Below are positions 2,989-12,680 of a stretch of 64,000 nt of DNA, piece after piece; the stretch's first letter is position 1; the number at the start of each line of letters is the position of its first letter. The notes below the pieces were generated by a model, which saw nothing but the letters and a program-made list of their open reading frames with translations, made no database searches and was not told the origin of the DNA. The position numbers and the translations under genes are program-made. This DNA comes from Escherichia phage V18, in sequence record NC_041937.1; one strand, given 5' to 3'.

Positions 2989-4173
2989 TTAAGCTTTAGC
3001 TAAAATGGCGCTAAACTCTTCACCAAACTCTTTTACAATCTTCATCAGGTTTGGGTACGCTTTGATCAGTTGAGCAACGATCTTGTCACGCCCTTTACCG
3101 ATAAGCAAGGCATTTCCTAAGGCATTAGGTTTCATCATCGCCATAAAGACTGAGAATACAAAATCTCGGTTCTCGTCCTTGAAATTTTCCCAAAGGAAAT
3201 CGAGGAAGTTTGCCACACAGCTAACAAGATCTTCGTCAGAGATACTTGCATTTTCCATCATATTGCGAATAGCGATACACCCTTCAGATCCAAGAATCCA
3301 CAAAATGTCTGGCTGCTTAGGACCTACGTATTCTTTGCAACCCCCTGCCATAATCCGACCGATTTCCGGTAAGTTGCGTTTCTTGGTGTGGTAGGTCCAG
3401 ATCTCTACCGCTGCAGTGTGACCAATAGCCCCTTGCAGAAGAACACGGGCCATAGCGTCAGAAATAATACCGCTGTCAAAATCGTGCAAGATGTCAGATG
3501 CAGCAACCCAAGATCGCGGTGTGGCAAAAGATGGACAATTAATCTCAGCCATAGCCTCATAATTATCGATAGCTGATGGAACTCTTTTCAGATACCCAAT
3601 TACAGAGGAGTGCACCCCATTAAGGAATGCGTAGTCCTCAATAAACACCTCTGCATTGCTTGTAACTTCTACAATGATAAAGCGGTTAGCCAGAGGAGCT
3701 TCGAGCGCCGAGAGAACCGCACCATCTGTAGAACGGTTACCCGCAGCCACAAAAACAGAGCCTTTAGGGAATGCATAGGTGCCGCACTTGTGGTCGAGCA
3801 TAATCTGCATTGCAACCTTTTGCAGATAGTTATCTGCATGAGTAAGCTCATCCAGAAAGATAATCCCGCTCCAGTCCGGATCTGCAGGCCAAAATTCTGG
3901 AATTGCAAACACTGTACGTGTAGTTCCATCCGCTTCTACAGGGATAGGTAGCCCAGATAAGTCGGCAGGATCTTTATCCGACAGTCGCACGTCAACCAGG
4001 TTGTCATCTCGCTCACCGAACATATTATCGGCGATCTGCTTCATTACCTGGCTCTTCCCCACACCCATTGGTCCTAAAATCAGGACAGATCGGTTATGAC
4101 GCTGGGCAAACTGAATGATAGCTGGCAACTCACGGACAGTGATTTGACCACTTTCAAATACGTTTCTTGACAT
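2989..4173 (-). CDS. MoxR-like AAA+ ATPase (CobS/AAA_5-like)
   Basis: 394-aa ORF; Walker A LILGPMGVGKSQ, Walker B IIFLDELTHA, overall MoxR-like layout. Confidence 0.7.
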   Translation of the reverse strand: MSRNVFESGQITVRELPAIIQFAQRHNRSVLILGPMGVGKSQVMKQIADNMFGERDDNLVDVRLSDKDPADLSGLPIPVEADGTTRTVFAIPEFWPADPDWSGIIFLDELTHADNYLQKVAMQIMLDHKCGTYAFPKGSVFVAAGNRSTDGAVLSALEAPLANRFIIVEVTSNAEVFIEDYAFLNGVHSSVIGYLKRVPSAIDNYEAMAEINCPSFATPRSWVAASDILHDFDSGIISDAMARVLLQGAIGHTAAVEIWTYHTKKRNLPEIGRIMAGGCKEYVGPKQPDILWILGSEGCIAIRNMMENASISDEDLVSCVANFLDFLWENFKDENRDFVFSVFMAMMKPNALGNALLIGKGRDKIVAQLIKAYPNLMKIVKEFGEEFSAILAKA

Positions 4174-4355
4174 TAGTAAAAGTCCTCTACTTGTGTGTAA
4201 GTGTTTTCAAAGTTTTCCAAAACAGATGTCACATCGGATCTGTCAATATCGTACACAACTTCCCAGTTGTATGCAACCCTTTCTGCTGTCGCCTCTTCAG
4301 GACTTAGCCGCCTGCTGGGATGAAAGAATGCAATATCTGTGGGTAACTTTGTCAA
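4173..4355 (-). CDS. small hypothetical protein
   Basis: 60-aa ORF, start overlaps stop of upstream gene; codon usage similar to neighbours. Confidence 0.3.
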   Translation of the reverse strand: MTKLPTDIAFFHPSRRLSPEEATAERVAYNWEVVYDIDRSDVTSVLENFENTYTQVEDFY

Positions 4356-4440
4356 AATTTAACTCTTTTTCTGCACAAAGTTCGTGTTTCTGGTATAACA
4401 TGTTTATTACTCTTCTAAGCGGCATCCCTGCCCCCACCTG

Positions 4441-4821
4441 CTAGAATGCAGTTCGAATCCAGATAAGGTTCTTATCTGCCCAATCATAGAGGCAAGTCAT
4501 TGCGCTATTGAATTGCTCACACGGAGGATAATCTTCTTCCATCTGGCGCATAGCAGAGCCTTGCGGGTAAATATCCCGTGCTGCAAGCCACGCATCGTAG
4601 TCATCCACGGTATCGAAGTAGTATACAACATCCTCCAACTCAGGATCGAACTTTGAATTATCAGGATCCAGTTGTTCAGGGAACTTGGAGCGTAACTTGC
4701 CAGCCACAATGCTTGCCAACTCGCTAACATGCTTATTGTCCCACTCTACTAGTTTCCCGTCTTCAGCGATGCGTCCTAACCACTGATCATGAAGGTCAAC
4801 TGTTGTCTTCCACCGGGCCAT
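4441..4821 (-). CDS. hypothetical protein
   Basis: 126-aa ORF in co-directional gene string. Confidence 0.45.
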   Translation of the reverse strand: MARWKTTVDLHDQWLGRIAEDGKLVEWDNKHVSELASIVAGKLRSKFPEQLDPDNSKFDPELEDVVYYFDTVDDYDAWLAARDIYPQGSAMRQMEEDYPPCEQFNSAMTCLYDWADKNLIWIRTAF

Positions 4822-4823
4822 TA

Positions 4824-5081
4824 TCAGTCCACCTCTTCTTCTCGTTGCAGTTCAAGATACCCGTAGGTCTGGATATCTTCAAGGGTGTGGAAATCCCCAT
4901 CTGCCGCTAAGGCACGAACAACTTGGCACAAAACTTTATGAGGAACTTCATCCAGACCCAGATTCAGTGCAGGGAACACCTTATCTAAGTCAACAAAATA
5001 AACGAACTGTAGCTCACCAGCTTCAAAAGGTGTATCTTCAATAAACATCTTCTCGGCATTAGTCAAGATCTGCACTTTCAT
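4824..5081 (-). CDS. hypothetical protein
   Basis: 85-aa ORF tightly packed with neighbours. Confidence 0.4.
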   Translation of the reverse strand: MKVQILTNAEKMFIEDTPFEAGELQFVYFVDLDKVFPALNLGLDEVPHKVLCQVVRALAADGDFHTLEDIQTYGYLELQREEEVD

Positions 5082-5458
5082 TATTCTGCCTCCTCTTCTT
5101 TTTCTTCGGCGTTAGTTTCAGTGCTACCCCACTCTGGAGTTTCCACCTCGATAGTAAACTCACGCACTACACGGTAATTGCCCATGAGGCGCTCCACTTC
5201 GTCAAGGTTTATGGAGAGGCCATTGGCAACCAGGTCTGCAGCACCCTCTTCTACCAGGTAGTCCAGATTGGCTTCCAAAGCTTCAGGCTCAAACCCTGTC
5301 AATGCAATCAGATAACCTTTCCCTTCATCAGGGAGGACAATACAGCCCAACTGATTTTCTTTAAAAAGGCAGTGACCATCATTATTGATTGGGTGTTCAT
5401 TGCAGTAAATAGCTGCACGATAAGTAACTTTAGACATCGGTAAGGCCTCCTTAGGCAA
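5081..5458 (-). CDS. hypothetical acidic protein
   Basis: 125-aa ORF; ATGA-type overlap with next gene. Confidence 0.45.
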   Translation of the reverse strand: MPKEALPMSKVTYRAAIYCNEHPINNDGHCLFKENQLGCIVLPDEGKGYLIALTGFEPEALEANLDYLVEEGAADLVANGLSINLDEVERLMGNYRVVREFTIEVETPEWGSTETNAEEKEEEAE

Positions 5459-6649: not shown

Positions 6650-6720
6650 ACTATATCTGGAATTTAGAGTAAAGTCAACACGTTTTTGATGTTGACATCT
6701 GTTGAGACAATTGATAAGAT
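6650..6720. promoter_or_regulatory. divergent back-to-back sigma70-like promoters sharing a palindromic -35 core
   Basis: Palindrome GTCAACA-n9-TGTTGAC (6674..6696). Plus strand: TTGACA 6692..6697, 17-bp spacer, TAAGAT 6715..6720. Minus strand: TTGACT (rc of 6674..6679), 17-bp spacer, TATAGT (rc of 6650..6655). Confidence 0.4.
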
Positions 6721-6751
6721 TTCTTCACTTACAGAGCACGAGAGACAACTC

Positions 6752-6844
6752 ATGAATCTTGAAAAATATTATACACCAGAAGAGTTAGAGCGCCTGCTCA
6801 AAAATATAGACGCAAACAGAATAATGCACGGAAACGAGATATAG
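6752..6844 (+). CDS. small ORF (30 aa) in leader of plus-strand block
   Basis: ATG..TAG ORF MNLEKYYTPEELERLLKNIDANRIMHGNEI downstream of predicted promoter; weak RBS; below ORF-track size cut-off. Confidence 0.25.
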   Translation: MNLEKYYTPEELERLLKNIDANRIMHGNEI

Positions 6845-6905
6845 AGTTCGACCTGTCGTGGGAAGAATACCTCCTATTTGGTAAAAAACTTTTAGGAGAA
6901 GGGGT

Positions 6906-7727
6906 ATGCGACTATACCTTATACCTTTCGACATGCACACAGATGAAAACGGGCTGGGAAATCCTTTCTACCCATCTCTGGAGCGGATAGATGATGAAGG
7001 TCCTTACGCAATTGATAATTGTTGTGTGGTAGGGTTGAGGTGCAACGCTCTGAAGGACTGTCTGGTAGATAAAAAGACCGCAATCCTGATTAAAGACAAA
7101 ACTGATCGAAAAATTGTCCAGCAGATGATGCTACATCTGAGCGAAGAGCGTATGGAGAAGTTGAAAGGTGATTATACTTTTGAAGATTTCATCTTGCAAT
7201 ACGGGACAGAAGAAGATAAACTAGCACTTTTTGACGAAGAGGAAGAAGATATGTCACCAATGCAGGACTTTAAAAATTTCATGGCTGATCGTGCAGCCAA
7301 CAAACACATTTCAGACATCGTAAACGAAACTGTGACAGAAGAAATTGAAGAACAGAACTCTGAAGAGGAAAAAGAGCCTCAGAAGGTCGAAGAGGAGATT
7401 GCAGAAGAGGTTCCTGCACTGCCTGATGATGTTGAGGTTGCTAAGGCTTACACTTTCTATTGTCAAACGTTCTACGATGCAGGTATGAAAGTTGATCTGT
7501 CGTTCAGCCAATTTAAGAGTACGTATATTCGCAAATGCTGTGCTTTAACTGGTGAACGTCTAGGAGCGGGACTTAAACCCCTGTTGGTGACCGACTGGAA
7601 TAAAGGTTTCACTAAAGGAAACTTTATGGTAGTATCTCCAATTATGGAGAAAGCTATGACAGATCTTATGAAAACCACCCGCATGACAATGACCGAGTTG
7701 GCAGGTATTTTCAAACACGTTAAATAA
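6906..7727 (+). CDS. hypothetical protein with central poly-acidic tract
   Basis: 273-aa ORF; strong RBS AGGAGAAGGGG upstream of ATG. Confidence 0.45.
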   Translation: MRLYLIPFDMHTDENGLGNPFYPSLERIDDEGPYAIDNCCVVGLRCNALKDCLVDKKTAILIKDKTDRKIVQQMMLHLSEERMEKLKGDYTFEDFILQYGTEEDKLALFDEEEEDMSPMQDFKNFMADRAANKHISDIVNETVTEEIEEQNSEEEKEPQKVEEEIAEEVPALPDDVEVAKAYTFYCQTFYDAGMKVDLSFSQFKSTYIRKCCALTGERLGAGLKPLLVTDWNKGFTKGNFMVVSPIMEKAMTDLMKTTRMTMTELAGIFKHVK

Positions 7728-7760
7728 TGACAGGGGCCATTGGCCCCTTCTGGAGTTTTA

Positions 7761-9221
7761 ATGGATAGCAGAAGTTCAGAAATCATTGCCTCACAGAAAG
7801 ATGATGCCCTGAGAATGTTGCAGGCTGCACGTATGTATCTCCTTGAAAAGCTGCCGTTTTATGGCACGCTACTGTCAGGGTTGCAGTTCGTAGAAAACCA
7901 CACATGGTGCTCTACCATGGCAACCGACCATAAACGCATCTATTACAGTCCTGAGTTCATTATGGGGTTGGCTGATGAACGCAAGGCTATTCTTAAGACC
8001 TCTCTAACTGGCGAGCAGTTTGAAATGGCTGAAGTTTTCTATTCACCCAAATCTGTGAAAGAGGTGGCCTTCCTTCTGTCACATGAGGTGGGGCATATTA
8101 TCTGTGATCACCTGGTCCGTGGTAAAAGCTTTGAGCCGGAACTGTTCAATATTGCTTGTGATCACGTTATCAACACAGGTCTTGTGGTTGACTTTAGCAA
8201 GCCTCCTTGTGTTTTCTTCCCGAAGGGGAAAAGCACTACGTTTGTGAAAGGTAAGCCTTTTGGCTTCTTAGCCAGCTGCTACTGCGACATGAAGTTTCAT
8301 GGATGGATTGCTGAGAACGTCTATGCAGTTCTTGATAAGCAAAGAGATCAGAATAACGGTAAAAGTAAGAGCGGTAAAGGTGAGAACTCTCAAGAGGATA
8401 AGCGACAAACCGATGATCACATGAGTGGGAACGGTGGCACCAGTGATGATCTTGGAAAGGCTATGGGATATAATCAGCCACAACCTGTAATCAGCCAATC
8501 TGATAAAGATCAGGCCATGCAGGACTCTGGTGACATGCTGGAGGCAGCAATGCAAGCTTCCGGAGGTCGTTGCCCTGAGGCGGTGCGTGAGTTTGTCAAG
8601 AACAGAGGTAAGCCTGTAATCAACTATATAGACATCATTAAGCAACGCATGTTGTCTAAACGAAAGGCTGAACTGACCTACAGAAAACCTGGTCGCCGAT
8701 CTGGGTCTTTGACCAGCACAATGCGAAAAGTTGGGGCTATAAACAAGAACCAGCACGTTATTGTTCCCGGTCGTAATCCGGAAAACACTATAGATATTGT
8801 GGTGGCTTTAGACGTTTCTGGCTCGATCTCTCAAAGAACTTTAAAGAAAATGTTCAATGAAATCACCGGATTGTGCAATCTGTATAAAGAGTTTAAGGTT
8901 ACAATGTTCTGTTGGTCAACTGAGGTTGGAGAGGTTAAAGTATACACTCGCGGTAACATAGATGAGATGATCAACTATGAGGTCCACTCAACATGGGGCA
9001 CAACAGCTGCTTGCGTGTTCGAGTATCTGGATGCCAACATACCGAATGCAAAAGATGTCATCGTCCTGACCGACCTATACTTTGAGCATAACTTTGAACA
9101 AAAGGCTGTTGACAACAAGTGGAAAAAGTACGATACTTTATGGGTTCTCACCGAGGGGTATAATAAAAATTATATCCCGAGCTTTGGGAAAACTGTAGAA
9201 TTAATCGAGTACGCCAAGTAA
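7761..9221 (+). CDS. vWA-domain protein with N-terminal putative zinc-metallopeptidase domain (DUF2201-like)
   Basis: HEVGHIICDH (HExxH) and MIDAS-like VVALDVSGSIS; start moved to ATG 7761 with GGAG RBS (track start 7740 lies inside a hairpin). Confidence 0.65.
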   Translation: MDSRSSEIIASQKDDALRMLQAARMYLLEKLPFYGTLLSGLQFVENHTWCSTMATDHKRIYYSPEFIMGLADERKAILKTSLTGEQFEMAEVFYSPKSVKEVAFLLSHEVGHIICDHLVRGKSFEPELFNIACDHVINTGLVVDFSKPPCVFFPKGKSTTFVKGKPFGFLASCYCDMKFHGWIAENVYAVLDKQRDQNNGKSKSGKGENSQEDKRQTDDHMSGNGGTSDDLGKAMGYNQPQPVISQSDKDQAMQDSGDMLEAAMQASGGRCPEAVREFVKNRGKPVINYIDIIKQRMLSKRKAELTYRKPGRRSGSLTSTMRKVGAINKNQHVIVPGRNPENTIDIVVALDVSGSISQRTLKKMFNEITGLCNLYKEFKVTMFCWSTEVGEVKVYTRGNIDEMINYEVHSTWGTTAACVFEYLDANIPNAKDVIVLTDLYFEHNFEQKAVDNKWKKYDTLWVLTEGYNKNYIPSFGKTVELIEYAK

Positions 9222-9227
9222 GAGAGG

Positions 9228-9494
9228 ATGTTATTTATGGCAACAGAGGTAGTAATCAAAGCTGAACGCCCAGTTAAAAAAGCTATCAACACGTTCCCTG
9301 TGGGAACCATTGTGAGCATGATCACAGAGTCAGGCCGTGTATCTACGCTGCTGATTGTGAAATCTGCATGTTCTTCTTGTGTGTGGGCTTACGATCTGGA
9401 CGAGAAAGAACTAAAAGATTTTGTTGGGGAGCTGAAAGCAACCGAGCTCGATGCTCGTATCGAAGTATTTGGTGAAACTATGGAGGAAGAGTAA
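9228..9494 (+). CDS. small hypothetical protein (member of tandem trio)
   Basis: 88-aa ORF. Confidence 0.4.
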   Translation: MLFMATEVVIKAERPVKKAINTFPVGTIVSMITESGRVSTLLIVKSACSSCVWAYDLDEKELKDFVGELKATELDARIEVFGETMEEE

Positions 9495-9757
9495 TGACCA
9501 CGAAAATCACTATTGCAGAACCGAAAGCTAACACTCAACCCATCGAAAAATTTAAATGCGGTGAGGTGGTAACATTTACACCAGATAATGAAGATGCTAA
9601 GATTTTCGCCATGGTCACAGCTGAGTGGATGTGCGACAACACCACACAGGTTCTGCGTTTTGACACCTACCTTACAGATGAAATCAGGAACGATAAGATC
9701 GTGACTGGTGTAGATACTGAAATTATTTTCTACAAGAGCTTTTTAGAGGGTTTCTAA
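9494..9757 (+). CDS. small hypothetical protein (member of tandem trio)
   Basis: 87-aa ORF. Confidence 0.4.
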   Translation: MTTKITIAEPKANTQPIEKFKCGEVVTFTPDNEDAKIFAMVTAEWMCDNTTQVLRFDTYLTDEIRNDKIVTGVDTEIIFYKSFLEGF

Positions 9758-9758
9758 T

Positions 9759-9995
9759 ATGGCGAAAATTCGTAAATTATCCAACAAGCAGGTTGTGAAA
9801 GATTTTGAACCAGGAGAGATTCTGTATGTTCGTGATGCAGATGACGAAGGAGAAGATCTTGTCATGCTGCTAGGGCACGCTGCTGAGGACGGATGCATCC
9901 AGGCTGTTTTTCTTGAAACAGCTATGGTGCACTGGATAGAGCTGGACATGAAAGCACGAAAACCTAAAGCAGAAATCCTGATTTACGAAGATTAA
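9759..9995 (+). CDS. small hypothetical protein (member of tandem trio)
   Basis: 78-aa ORF. Confidence 0.4.
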   Translation: MAKIRKLSNKQVVKDFEPGEILYVRDADDEGEDLVMLLGHAAEDGCIQAVFLETAMVHWIELDMKARKPKAEILIYED

Positions 9996-10011
9996 CAAAA
10001 AGGAGAGAGCC

Positions 10012-10461
10012 GTGTTGAGCAAACGTGAATGCGACAGCATTAGCCTGAATTCTTATAAGAAACAATGGTTTGGGGTAGAAGTTTGCCGACTGCGGCTAGG
10101 CTCCTACCTGAACTTCGTTTATTACGAGAGCGACAGTCGTATCGTTTCTTATGAAGTGTTCTACACTAAGAACACATTCGAACTGCGCCGTAAAGTAGAG
10201 GGAGGGAGAACTACCACCCAGAATAATTGGGAAACTATTCTGCCTCCAGATGTTATAGGAAGTCCCCTGAATGTATCTGAAGATGAAAATCTTATGGTTC
10301 ATGCTATGATGGGACTTGACAGCTTAGAGCTGGCGATCTATGATATGTCCATCGAAGCAGTTAAGCTGGACTACATCGAAAACACTTTAGAGGAAGGTAT
10401 CAAGAAGTTTCTCAGTGAGAAATTAAAAGATCACTTTCATAAGGAGCTATACCTGTTATGA
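10012..10461 (+). CDS. hypothetical protein
   Basis: 149-aa ORF. Confidence 0.45.
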   Translation: MLSKRECDSISLNSYKKQWFGVEVCRLRLGSYLNFVYYESDSRIVSYEVFYTKNTFELRRKVEGGRTTTQNNWETILPPDVIGSPLNVSEDENLMVHAMMGLDSLELAIYDMSIEAVKLDYIENTLEEGIKKFLSEKLKDHFHKELYLL

Positions 10462-10703
10462 AGACCCGTAAAGAACGTAACAAAATTTTACCTGGGGCTC
10501 TCGAACACCTGATGAAGTGCAGATCTATTTGGCACTCTGCCAAGGAAGGGCAGAAGGTGGTTGTGGTTAGTGACAATACCAACCCGTTTGGAGATTATAC
10601 CACCATGATGGCCCCATATGTCCGTGATGGCGTTGTGGAGGTGGTCCCTTACAACGGTCTGCATGAACGTCACTTTGAAAGCACTTTGCTAGTGGAGCTA
10701 TAG
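10458..10703 (+). CDS. hypothetical protein
   Basis: 81-aa ORF, ATGA overlap with upstream gene. Confidence 0.4.
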   Translation: MKTRKERNKILPGALEHLMKCRSIWHSAKEGQKVVVVSDNTNPFGDYTTMMAPYVRDGVVEVVPYNGLHERHFESTLLVEL

Positions 10704-10705
10704 TC

Positions 10706-11272
10706 ATGGCGGTCAATGTGGCTTACAACACAGGAAAGCTTGACAGAGACATTGGGTGTCTTGTCCTTTCAGATACAGAAGAGTATTGGGGCTATGGGTT
10801 GCTGTCAGACCCACACCCGAGCAACCTTGTATCAACAGTGCTATACCGCTACGACCCTGTGCCAACGGTACACGACAAAGACATTCACGACCTTCGGATT
10901 AAGTGTTTGGAAGATCTGCTGAACAATGGTTGCAACGATCTGCGGGTAGCCAAAGAGAAGCTTACAAACATTCACAAAGAGGAAGTGATGAGCACCCTCA
11001 GTAAGAGATCAGTGCACAAAAAGATGATGCTGAACTTTGCAATGGGTATCTACATGGATGGGTATAAGGGAGGTGATCCGATTCTCAAGCTTCGCTGCCC
11101 GACATTGTGGGAAAGAGTGGTTGACAGCAAGGACGGTACTGCCCTGCTCGAACTCCACACTGCAGGTTGGATTTGGCGGTATGTAGACGGATACCCTCTG
11201 TGGGCATGTGGACCTGGGGAATTTGTTGACAGGCCTAGTGCGGTGGTGGACTTACTATTGCAGTTTGAATAA
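10706..11272 (+). CDS. hypothetical protein
   Basis: 188-aa ORF. Confidence 0.5.
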   Translation: MAVNVAYNTGKLDRDIGCLVLSDTEEYWGYGLLSDPHPSNLVSTVLYRYDPVPTVHDKDIHDLRIKCLEDLLNNGCNDLRVAKEKLTNIHKEEVMSTLSKRSVHKKMMLNFAMGIYMDGYKGGDPILKLRCPTLWERVVDSKDGTALLELHTAGWIWRYVDGYPLWACGPGEFVDRPSAVVDLLLQFE

Positions 11273-12299: not shown

Positions 12300-12680
12300 A
12301 TGTGCAAGTGTAAATCCTATAATTGGAAAGTGAAAGGTGCCAAGCATCCAAATGTTATCGTTGATGTGCCTAAAAAGCTCCGTGACGGCAAAAAACGTGT
12401 GTGCCTTGATAAGTGCATGGTTAAGCCTATTATGAGTCTATGGGCAGCAGGATTGAAAACTCTAAACTGCTGCTGTGGTCACAACAAAGATGTTCCAAGC
12501 ATCATTATCCCAGAAGATGCAGACCCTAAAGCTTATGCCAAAATACTGACCCGCTACCCAAGCACCTTTCTGATCGGAAAATGGTATCACGATGAACTTC
12601 AATGGTGGATAGCGTACGGTAGTGTAGGTGCTGCTTTTGGCTTCCCAGCTTTGTCAGAGCGCTACGTCAAAGCGTCATAA
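12300..12680 (+). CDS. hypothetical Cys-rich protein
   Basis: 126-aa ORF with CKCK, CLDKC and NCCCGH motifs; possible metal-binding. Confidence 0.45.
   Translation: MCKCKSYNWKVKGAKHPNVIVDVPKKLRDGKKRVCLDKCMVKPIMSLWAAGLKTLNCCCGHNKDVPSIIIPEDADPKAYAKILTRYPSTFLIGKWYHDELQWWIAYGSVGAAFGFPALSERYVKAS

Follow-up and report, generated by a model that had tools for sequence, protein, structure and literature searches.

Evidence that three adjacent small genes of the rV5-like Escherichia phage V18 are diverged tandem paralogs

A 64-kb stretch of the genome of Escherichia phage V18 (NC_041937.1), called the window below and used for all coordinates, carries three small genes in immediate succession, which we designate A, B, and C. 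A first description made without database searches (the sequence-only reading) had called them as three open reading frames (ORFs) placed back to back on the + strand, at 9228-9494 (88 amino acids, aa), 9494-9757 (87 aa), and 9759-9995 (78 aa), and had taken them for diverged paralogs. The three + strand ORFs are there as described, and so is their tight spacing: A and B share one base (TAATG), the stop codon TAA of A lying at 9492-9494 and the ATG of B at 9494-9496, and a single base separates the stop codon of B (9755-9757) from the ATG of C at 9759. Every start is preceded by a Shine-Dalgarno sequence (GAGAGG at 9222-9227 for A, GGAGGA at 9482-9487 for B, and AGAGGG at 9745-9750 for C), and the three genes are translationally coupled. 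Two start codons are available for A: ATG 9228 directly abuts the Shine-Dalgarno sequence, and ATG 9237 is 9 nucleotides (nt) downstream. Since the majority of database entries for A begin with MATEV (85 aa) and the Shine-Dalgarno spacing favors ATG 9237, A most likely spans 9237-9494, and the 88-aa call from 9228 is probably three codons too long. The three genes are as follows (pI, isoelectric point).

Gene A, 9237-9494, + strand: most likely 85 aa, pI 4.65, phrog_10698 (E = 5.9e-48); the member nearest to the single-copy form.
Gene B, 9494-9757, + strand: 87 aa, pI 4.46, phrog_12861 (E = 8.5e-62); a diverged paralog.
Gene C, 9759-9995, + strand: 78 aa, pI 4.70, phrog_12046 (E = 1e-53); the most diverged paralog.

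The region 8500-11000 shares 97-99% identity with over 100 rV5-like Escherichia phages from the genus Vequintavirus (myoviruses of ~137 kb), which identifies the window, by nucleotide identity, as an rV5-like Vequintavirus. In phage I29 the counterparts of A, B, and C are I29_13, I29_14, and I29_15, each annotated as a hypothetical protein. Over the same region, 16 GenBank records that carry the name "Campylobacter phage" (MG0656xx, with C. jejuni given as the host) are ~97% identical to the E. coli rV5-like phages, which suggests a mislabelled or contaminating phage in that dataset.

The conclusion supported here is that the trio represents diverged tandem paralogs of a single lineage-restricted gene, as the sequence-only reading had proposed. 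It is carried by significant searches with enriched profiles and a hidden Markov model (HMM), by a genomic slot that holds one, three, or four copies of the gene, and by matching all-beta topologies predicted for A and C. The resemblance originally noticed was a loose pattern made of an F-x-x-G motif, a hydrophobic strand, and a Cys. The first two elements stand in all three proteins: the motif, F-x-x-G-[TE]-[IV]-[VL], takes the forms FPVGTIV (A), FKCGEVV (B), and FEPGEIL (C), and the strand that follows it reads LLIVK, FAMVT, and LVMLL, respectively. The Cys did not hold up in the same way, aligning only roughly and not being kept in the wider family, where the position is G, Y, or V in the sequences P0012, P0040, and Ed75. 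A metal-binding or disulfide role of this Cys was ruled out because it is not conserved in the family.

Direct comparison of the three sequences was of little help. In pairwise BLAST the A-B pair was not significant (E = 3) and the A-C and B-C pairs were marginal, two-sequence searches giving E values of 0.004-0.08. Word-index homologue searches with A, B, and C returned near-identical rV5-type sequences only, plus two variants of A at 62-64%, so that the family profiles were shallow (effective number of sequences ~1.3). With these shallow profiles the hhalign probability of the pairs was <5%; all three alignments were still in register on F-x-x-G.

With bridging sequences added, an HMM of A and the single-copy members of its family was built without B or C. 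It was run against 1,426 ORFs, comprising the six-frame ORFs of at least 40 aa from the window and 14 related loci. B came out as the best non-self match (E = 2.8e-6), followed by C (E = 4e-4), and the first unrelated ORF trailed at 0.18. In hhalign the A family matched B with a probability of 83.5-94.4% (P of 8e-6 to 9e-8, the value of 94.4% being reached at P = 9e-8 over 74 columns) and C with a probability of 79-84% (P of 7e-6 to 1.6e-5, 66-68 columns). In shuffle controls the score of B was reached by 0 of 2000 shuffles (empirical p < 0.0005) and that of C by 3 of 2000 (p ~0.0015). Pairwise profile alignment, which had been named as the check on paralogy, was thus positive for the A family against B and against C when enriched profiles were used; it was negative with the shallow profiles and for the B-C pair, where the probability is ~5%.

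Additional sequences connect the three genes. When 1.84 billion representative proteins were searched exhaustively by HMMER for the A family, only five matches emerged. Among these, the bridging sequence P0040 (83 aa) matches A (E = 1e-10), B (E = 3e-5), and C (E = 2e-4). The single-copy gene of locus L019 is 27.8% identical to B over 79 aa (E = 3.6e-6), gene A shares 32-35% identity with the single-copy genes of a sister clade, and B gives a faint full-length match to phrog_10698 (E = 0.082). Outside Vequintavirus, no relatives of B or C were found by tblastn in 50,697 phage genomes, and neither the remainder of the 64-kb window nor the syntenic regions examined in seven other Vequintavirinae genera contained a further family member. 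One match of the exhaustive search, P0039 (197 aa), is a three-fold repeat in which each FPPGAAVAMFRQSGKVLAALAVDRNGTLNVAWLDL resembles A residues 19-57 (overall E = 1.4e-4), with weak Pfam signals for SH3-C_UBE2O, Big_6, and bMG3. It was considered as a family member and set aside, the resemblance being judged to be at motif level and likely a convergence of beta-hairpin repeats.

The genomic position of the trio provided independent information. Its surroundings are as follows.

Left neighbor, 7740-9221, + strand: DUF2201_N metallopeptidase plus DUF2201 VWA-like protein, N4 gp25-like (PF13203, 1.3e-28; PF09967, 2.7e-11).
Right neighbor (gene D), 10012-10461, + strand: 149 aa, phrog_6790; right border of the variable slot.
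Interior of A, 9252-9481, + strand: swapped for a ~500-nt two-paralog cassette in 44 of 116 related genomes.

The DUF2201 VWA/metallopeptidase gene (VWA gene below) forms the left border of a slot that ends at D and that holds one, three, or four family copies depending on the phage. Gene D is not itself a family member, the family HMM giving no match to it. In a tblastn census of 116 rV5-like records, three copies were found in 72 phage records, as in the window, and four copies in 44. In the four-copy records two tandem genes replace A (in phage EdH4 these are Ed75 and Ed76, with ~40% identity to A and between themselves), which is direct evidence for tandem duplication in the slot. The boundaries of the swap, taken from the DNA breakpoints, lie within gene A (9252-9481) and the DNA flanks are ~97% identical; position A is exchanged for the two-gene cassette in ~38% of the relatives.

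The single-copy state was found in the sister clade (L012 and L016-L019), where exactly one family gene lies between the VWA gene and D; the gene that follows it is 47-49% identical to D. In this clade P0040 is the single gene of the slot on a 123-kb metagenomic contig collinear with the window (identities of 65% for the anti-sigma-like gene that opens the operon, 61% for the VWA gene, 47% for D, and 47% for E). The four further contigs of the clade, from IMG/VR, carry single genes that are 70-99% identical to P0040. The 62-64% variant of A is solitary in another early-region context, on the metagenomic contigs L010 and L011.

Other parts of the same region also vary between relatives. In L010 (3172-3600) a homologue of a Cys-rich 126-aa protein of the window (MCKCKSYN..., 12300-12680) comes immediately after the A-like gene, an arrangement seen in two metagenomic contigs; in the window the gene for this protein is found ~2.8 kb further downstream than the trio. 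Modules of the early region have evidently been reshuffled among related phages. The sister clade (L012, 8938-9531 and 9577-10128; L016-L019) carries two tandem paralogs of the 188-aa gene of the window (10706-11272), with 27% and 30% identity, and this gene is a second case of copy-number change in the same operon. As for the slot borders, the names given in PHROGs, "HNH endonuclease" for the VWA protein (phrog_1314) and "tail protein" for gene D (phrog_6790), both seem to be propagated annotation errors.

Structure prediction, in which unrelated folds would have spoken against paralogy, gave all-beta models whose topologies match. The models of A and C were built with AlphaFold2 from separate alignments, that of A from the enriched A-family alignment (predicted local distance difference test, pLDDT, 84; predicted template modeling score, pTM, 0.69) and that of C from its own family alignment, with moderate confidence (pLDDT 64, pTM 0.52). 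The secondary-structure strings of A and C agree at 76% in the register of the sequence alignment, the maximum being at zero shift, and the four central strands of the two models fall in the same alignment columns. When both models were compared with the Protein Data Bank (PDB) by Foldseek, the lists were dominated by Tudor, PWWP, KOW, SH3, and Hfq domains and the WYL domain of BrxR, with template modeling (TM) scores of ~0.45-0.53 over ~50 residues, root-mean-square deviations of ~1.5-3 Å, probabilities of 0.9-1.0, and E of at least 0.096. As no E value is significant, the assignment holds at the level of fold class only: the predicted fold is an SH3-like small beta-barrel core to which an N-terminal beta-hairpin and a long C-terminal strand are added.

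In these non-significant Foldseek matches the ~50-residue core of the A and C models superposes on SH3-like barrels such as Tudor, PWWP, KOW, Sm/Hfq, and BrxR WYL, with a probability of at least 0.95. Unlike those families, the trio shows no significant E value or Pfam match and has neither a conserved aromatic cage nor a W-Y-L motif. The models also differ from SH3-like barrel domains by the added N-terminal beta-hairpin and long C-terminal strand, and the proteins are acidic and stand alone. No Pfam match was obtained for A, B, or C at E up to 1, including WYL (PF13280), KOW, LSM, and Tudor, and the trio is placed in none of these families; for the WYL domain the motif is not conserved either, since the VWAYDL segment of A reads VCAYDL, VGVFDL, or IYTVDL in relatives. 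A sequence-profile search of the PDB gave spurious weak matches only (vimentin coiled coil, E = 0.26; ribosomal L24, E = 1.3). Among predicted viral structures (BFVD), the A model found its own family first and then many uncharacterized phage proteins of 70-90 aa, including those of Erwinia phage Rexella (A0A191ZCX0), Morganella phage MP2 (A0A192YBZ7), and N4 (Gp21, A0MZB1), with TM of 0.5-0.67 and E of 2.5e-3 to 4e-2. Several of these come from N4-like phages that have a gp25-type VWA protein; their identity to A is only 6-19%, and the likeness of fold does not establish homology.

The trio lies inside a + strand operon of ~6.7 to 13.5 kb, whose opening genes are the anti-sigma-like gene and then the DUF2201 metallopeptidase/VWA gene. 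A possible start of transcription was located at its head.

Promoter candidate, 6692-6720, + strand: sigma-70-like TTGACA-17-TAAGAT with an upstream TG; a consensus match.

This site heads the operon, a short way ahead of the MNLEKYY start assigned to bas54_0056 in phage Bas54, and a divergent promoter-like site faces it from the - strand (6678-6650). Because the operon is headed by a host-type sigma-70-like promoter, as judged from the consensus match, the trio is probably made early in infection. Together with the divergent-promoter layout, the match makes it plausible that this is an early region.

Two further observations concern the same part of the operon. The anti-sigma/anti-termination-like gene (6.7-7.7 kb, + strand) has two 1-base homopolymer deletions relative to I29 in 6680-6920, one shortening A7 to A6 near 6800 and the other C3 to C2 near 6917. 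As a result the N-terminal part of the gene runs through three frames, and the listed ORF covers 6906-7727 only. These breaks are either homopolymer sequencing errors or the sign of a pseudogene in this isolate. In the sister-clade contigs L012/L013 the divergent promoter region ahead of the anti-sigma-like gene contains an inserted TnpB-type gene (4119-5258; Pfam matches OrfB_IS605 and Cas12f1-like_TNB).

Experimental data on the orthologues are available from the HIDEN-SEQ preprint, in which gene essentiality was mapped in Bas54, that is phage MaxBurger (MZ501093) (bioRxiv 10.1101/2025.11.20.689424). The orthologues of A, B, and C are bas54_0054, bas54_0053, and bas54_0052, with 98.8%, 100%, and 92.3% identity. 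All three were non-essential on E. coli K-12, with TA sites hit at 17/17, 13/15, and 12/12 (bioRxiv 10.1101/2025.11.20.689424), and A, B, and C are thus individually dispensable in the laboratory. This dispensability fits an accessory gene and does not demonstrate an anti-defense function. Because the paralogs may be redundant and so hide a phenotype, disruption of one gene at a time leaves room for a role. No functional study of the trio was found in the literature beyond the HIDEN-SEQ essentiality tables. In Extended Data Table 8 of that preprint, the sheet "resampling_K-12_vs_CFE303" names the CFE311 library in its console line and is identical to the CFE311 sheet (bioRxiv 10.1101/2025.11.20.689424).

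The comparison with Bas54 also bears on selection. Between the window and Bas54, the codon differences in B are 18 synonymous and 0 nonsynonymous and those in A are 14 synonymous and 1 nonsynonymous; across the 116 phage records identity does not fall below 94% for B or below 88% for C. These counts point to strong purifying selection on the family. B would be the fixed, strongly constrained member, and position A, with its cassette swap, the member of fast turnover. The proteins are uniformly acidic, with a net charge of -6 to -7 for A, B, and C and, over all family members, a pI of 4.2-5.0 and a net charge of -4 to -9.

From these results we favor, with moderate confidence, the explanation that the trio consists of tandem paralogs encoding small acidic all-beta proteins that are probably made early and bind protein partners. 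The genes would have arisen by tandem duplication within the single slot between the DUF2201 VWA/metallopeptidase gene and D. Every paralog would most likely be a stoichiometric binder of a protein partner, nucleic-acid binding being unlikely because the family members are acidic. Host factors or defense components would serve as partners, and duplication followed by divergence could have led to different target specificities.

Several results weigh against this explanation. The direct similarity between B and C stays weak even with enriched profiles (hhalign probability ~5%), so that the membership of C rests on the A/single-copy profile, the synteny, and the predicted fold, and C is the least secure member of the family. 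Its model is also of moderate confidence only (pLDDT 64). Neither model has a significant Foldseek match to a solved structure, the best E values being 0.096 and 0.19. As for timing, matches to the promoter consensus are not enriched over shuffled sequences (22 found, 16.6 +/- 4.0 expected), and no transcriptome of an rV5-like phage was found in the literature, "early" therefore resting on the consensus promoter match. Insertions in the orthologues of A, B, and C caused no significant defect on the uropathogenic isolate CFE311 (log2 fold changes of +0.46, +0.33, and -1.32, q at least 0.68) (bioRxiv 10.1101/2025.11.20.689424). Finally, a role as binder or inhibitor has no positive support, and neither has the host-takeover or anti-defense role raised in the sequence-only reading, PHROGs, Pfam, and the PDB profile search having given no match to a known anti-defense or host-takeover family.

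Other explanations were weighed against the same data. The trio could consist of accessory subunits, adaptors, or substrates, for example target-recognition modules, of a machine formed by the MoxR ATPase and the VWA-metallopeptidase, so that variation in copy number would retarget the machine. A family gene lies immediately downstream of the VWA gene, at 11-15 nt, in Vequintavirus and in the sister clade, and SH3/Tudor-like barrels are typical protein-recognition modules. In the CFE311 versus K-12 comparison both components of the machine were conditionally required, the VWA gene bas54_0055 being depleted by -2.2 (q = 0.009) and the MoxR ATPase gene bas54_0063 by -7.23 (log2 fold change), and the MoxR ATPase is credited with overcoming the defense system DS-28 (bioRxiv 10.1101/2025.11.20.689424). 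The same experiment, however, shows no depletion for insertions in A and B, and the change in C is not significant. In L010 and L011 an A-like gene also occurs with no VWA gene in the stretches covered (9.2 kb and 4.0 kb), other Vequintavirinae genera retain the VWA gene followed by unrelated genes, and neighboring positions say little in so compact a phage operon. We therefore regard this role as improbable, though it retains some chance. In the window, a 394-aa gene at 2989-4173 on the - strand matches the Bas54 MoxR ATPase bas54_0063 by size and position, as the partner of the VWA gene at 7740-9221.

Alternatively, the proteins could be nucleic-acid-binding small barrels of the Sm, KOW, Tudor, or WYL type with a regulatory action on phage or host RNA or DNA, for instance that of an RNA chaperone, a translational regulator, or a ligand sensor. 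The best structural neighbors would agree with this, as they include the BrxR WYL domain, the KOW domain of Spt5/DSIF, Hfq, a DNA-bound PWWP domain, and the N-domain of eIF5A. Nevertheless, all members are strongly acidic, none of the corresponding Pfam families was matched and every Foldseek E value was non-significant, and the family alignment has no conserved basic patch motif, all of which makes such a function distinctly improbable. The least likely of these alternatives, that three unrelated small genes resemble each other in length, F-x-x-G motif, and hydrophobic strand by chance among beta-rich proteins, could appeal to the pairwise BLAST results, the low probabilities of the shallow profiles, the weak B-C similarity, and the fact that PHROGs, which clusters by remote homology, keeps three separate families, but it is now unlikely and largely refuted by the enriched-profile matches with their gap to the next ORF, by the bridging sequences that match all three genes, by the single-copy slot of the sister clade, and by the identical strand register of the A and C models.

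The preferred explanation, tandem paralogs that bind protein partners, also finds a place among known phage loci. The early regions of phages carry tandem arrays of small accessory or anti-defense genes, such as anti-CRISPR clusters and the accessory clusters of T-even phages. Like these, the trio is small, non-essential, and part of an operon with a host-type promoter (a consensus match), and it shows copy-number variation, cassette swapping, and fast divergence of some members. Unlike these, it has no Aca-like regulator that we could find nearby and no member with a demonstrated target, and B is almost invariant. A bolder version, to which we give a very low probability, is that the array is a set of diversifying SH3-like recognition or decoy modules acting with, or in parallel to, the MoxR-VWA counter-defense machine, each binding a different host immune or housekeeping protein, and that the cassette swap at A retunes specificity between lineages. 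If true, this would make the slot a modular, duplicating target-recognition locus for phage counter-defense.

The genes themselves are already in databases as hypotheticals, and PHROGs treats phrog_10698, phrog_12861, and phrog_12046, of which A, B, and C are full-length members, as unrelated families with no assigned function. What is new is that these three orphan PHROGs, joined here through bridging sequences, synteny, and predicted structure, are one family with a predicted fold and a history of one to three to four copies. Three "unrelated hypotheticals" are thereby removed from the dark matter of the therapeutically used rV5-like phages. In other respects the locus is an ordinary tandem expansion of accessory genes in a large phage, in which the invariant B and the swappable position A offer a handle for asking what small early proteins bind.

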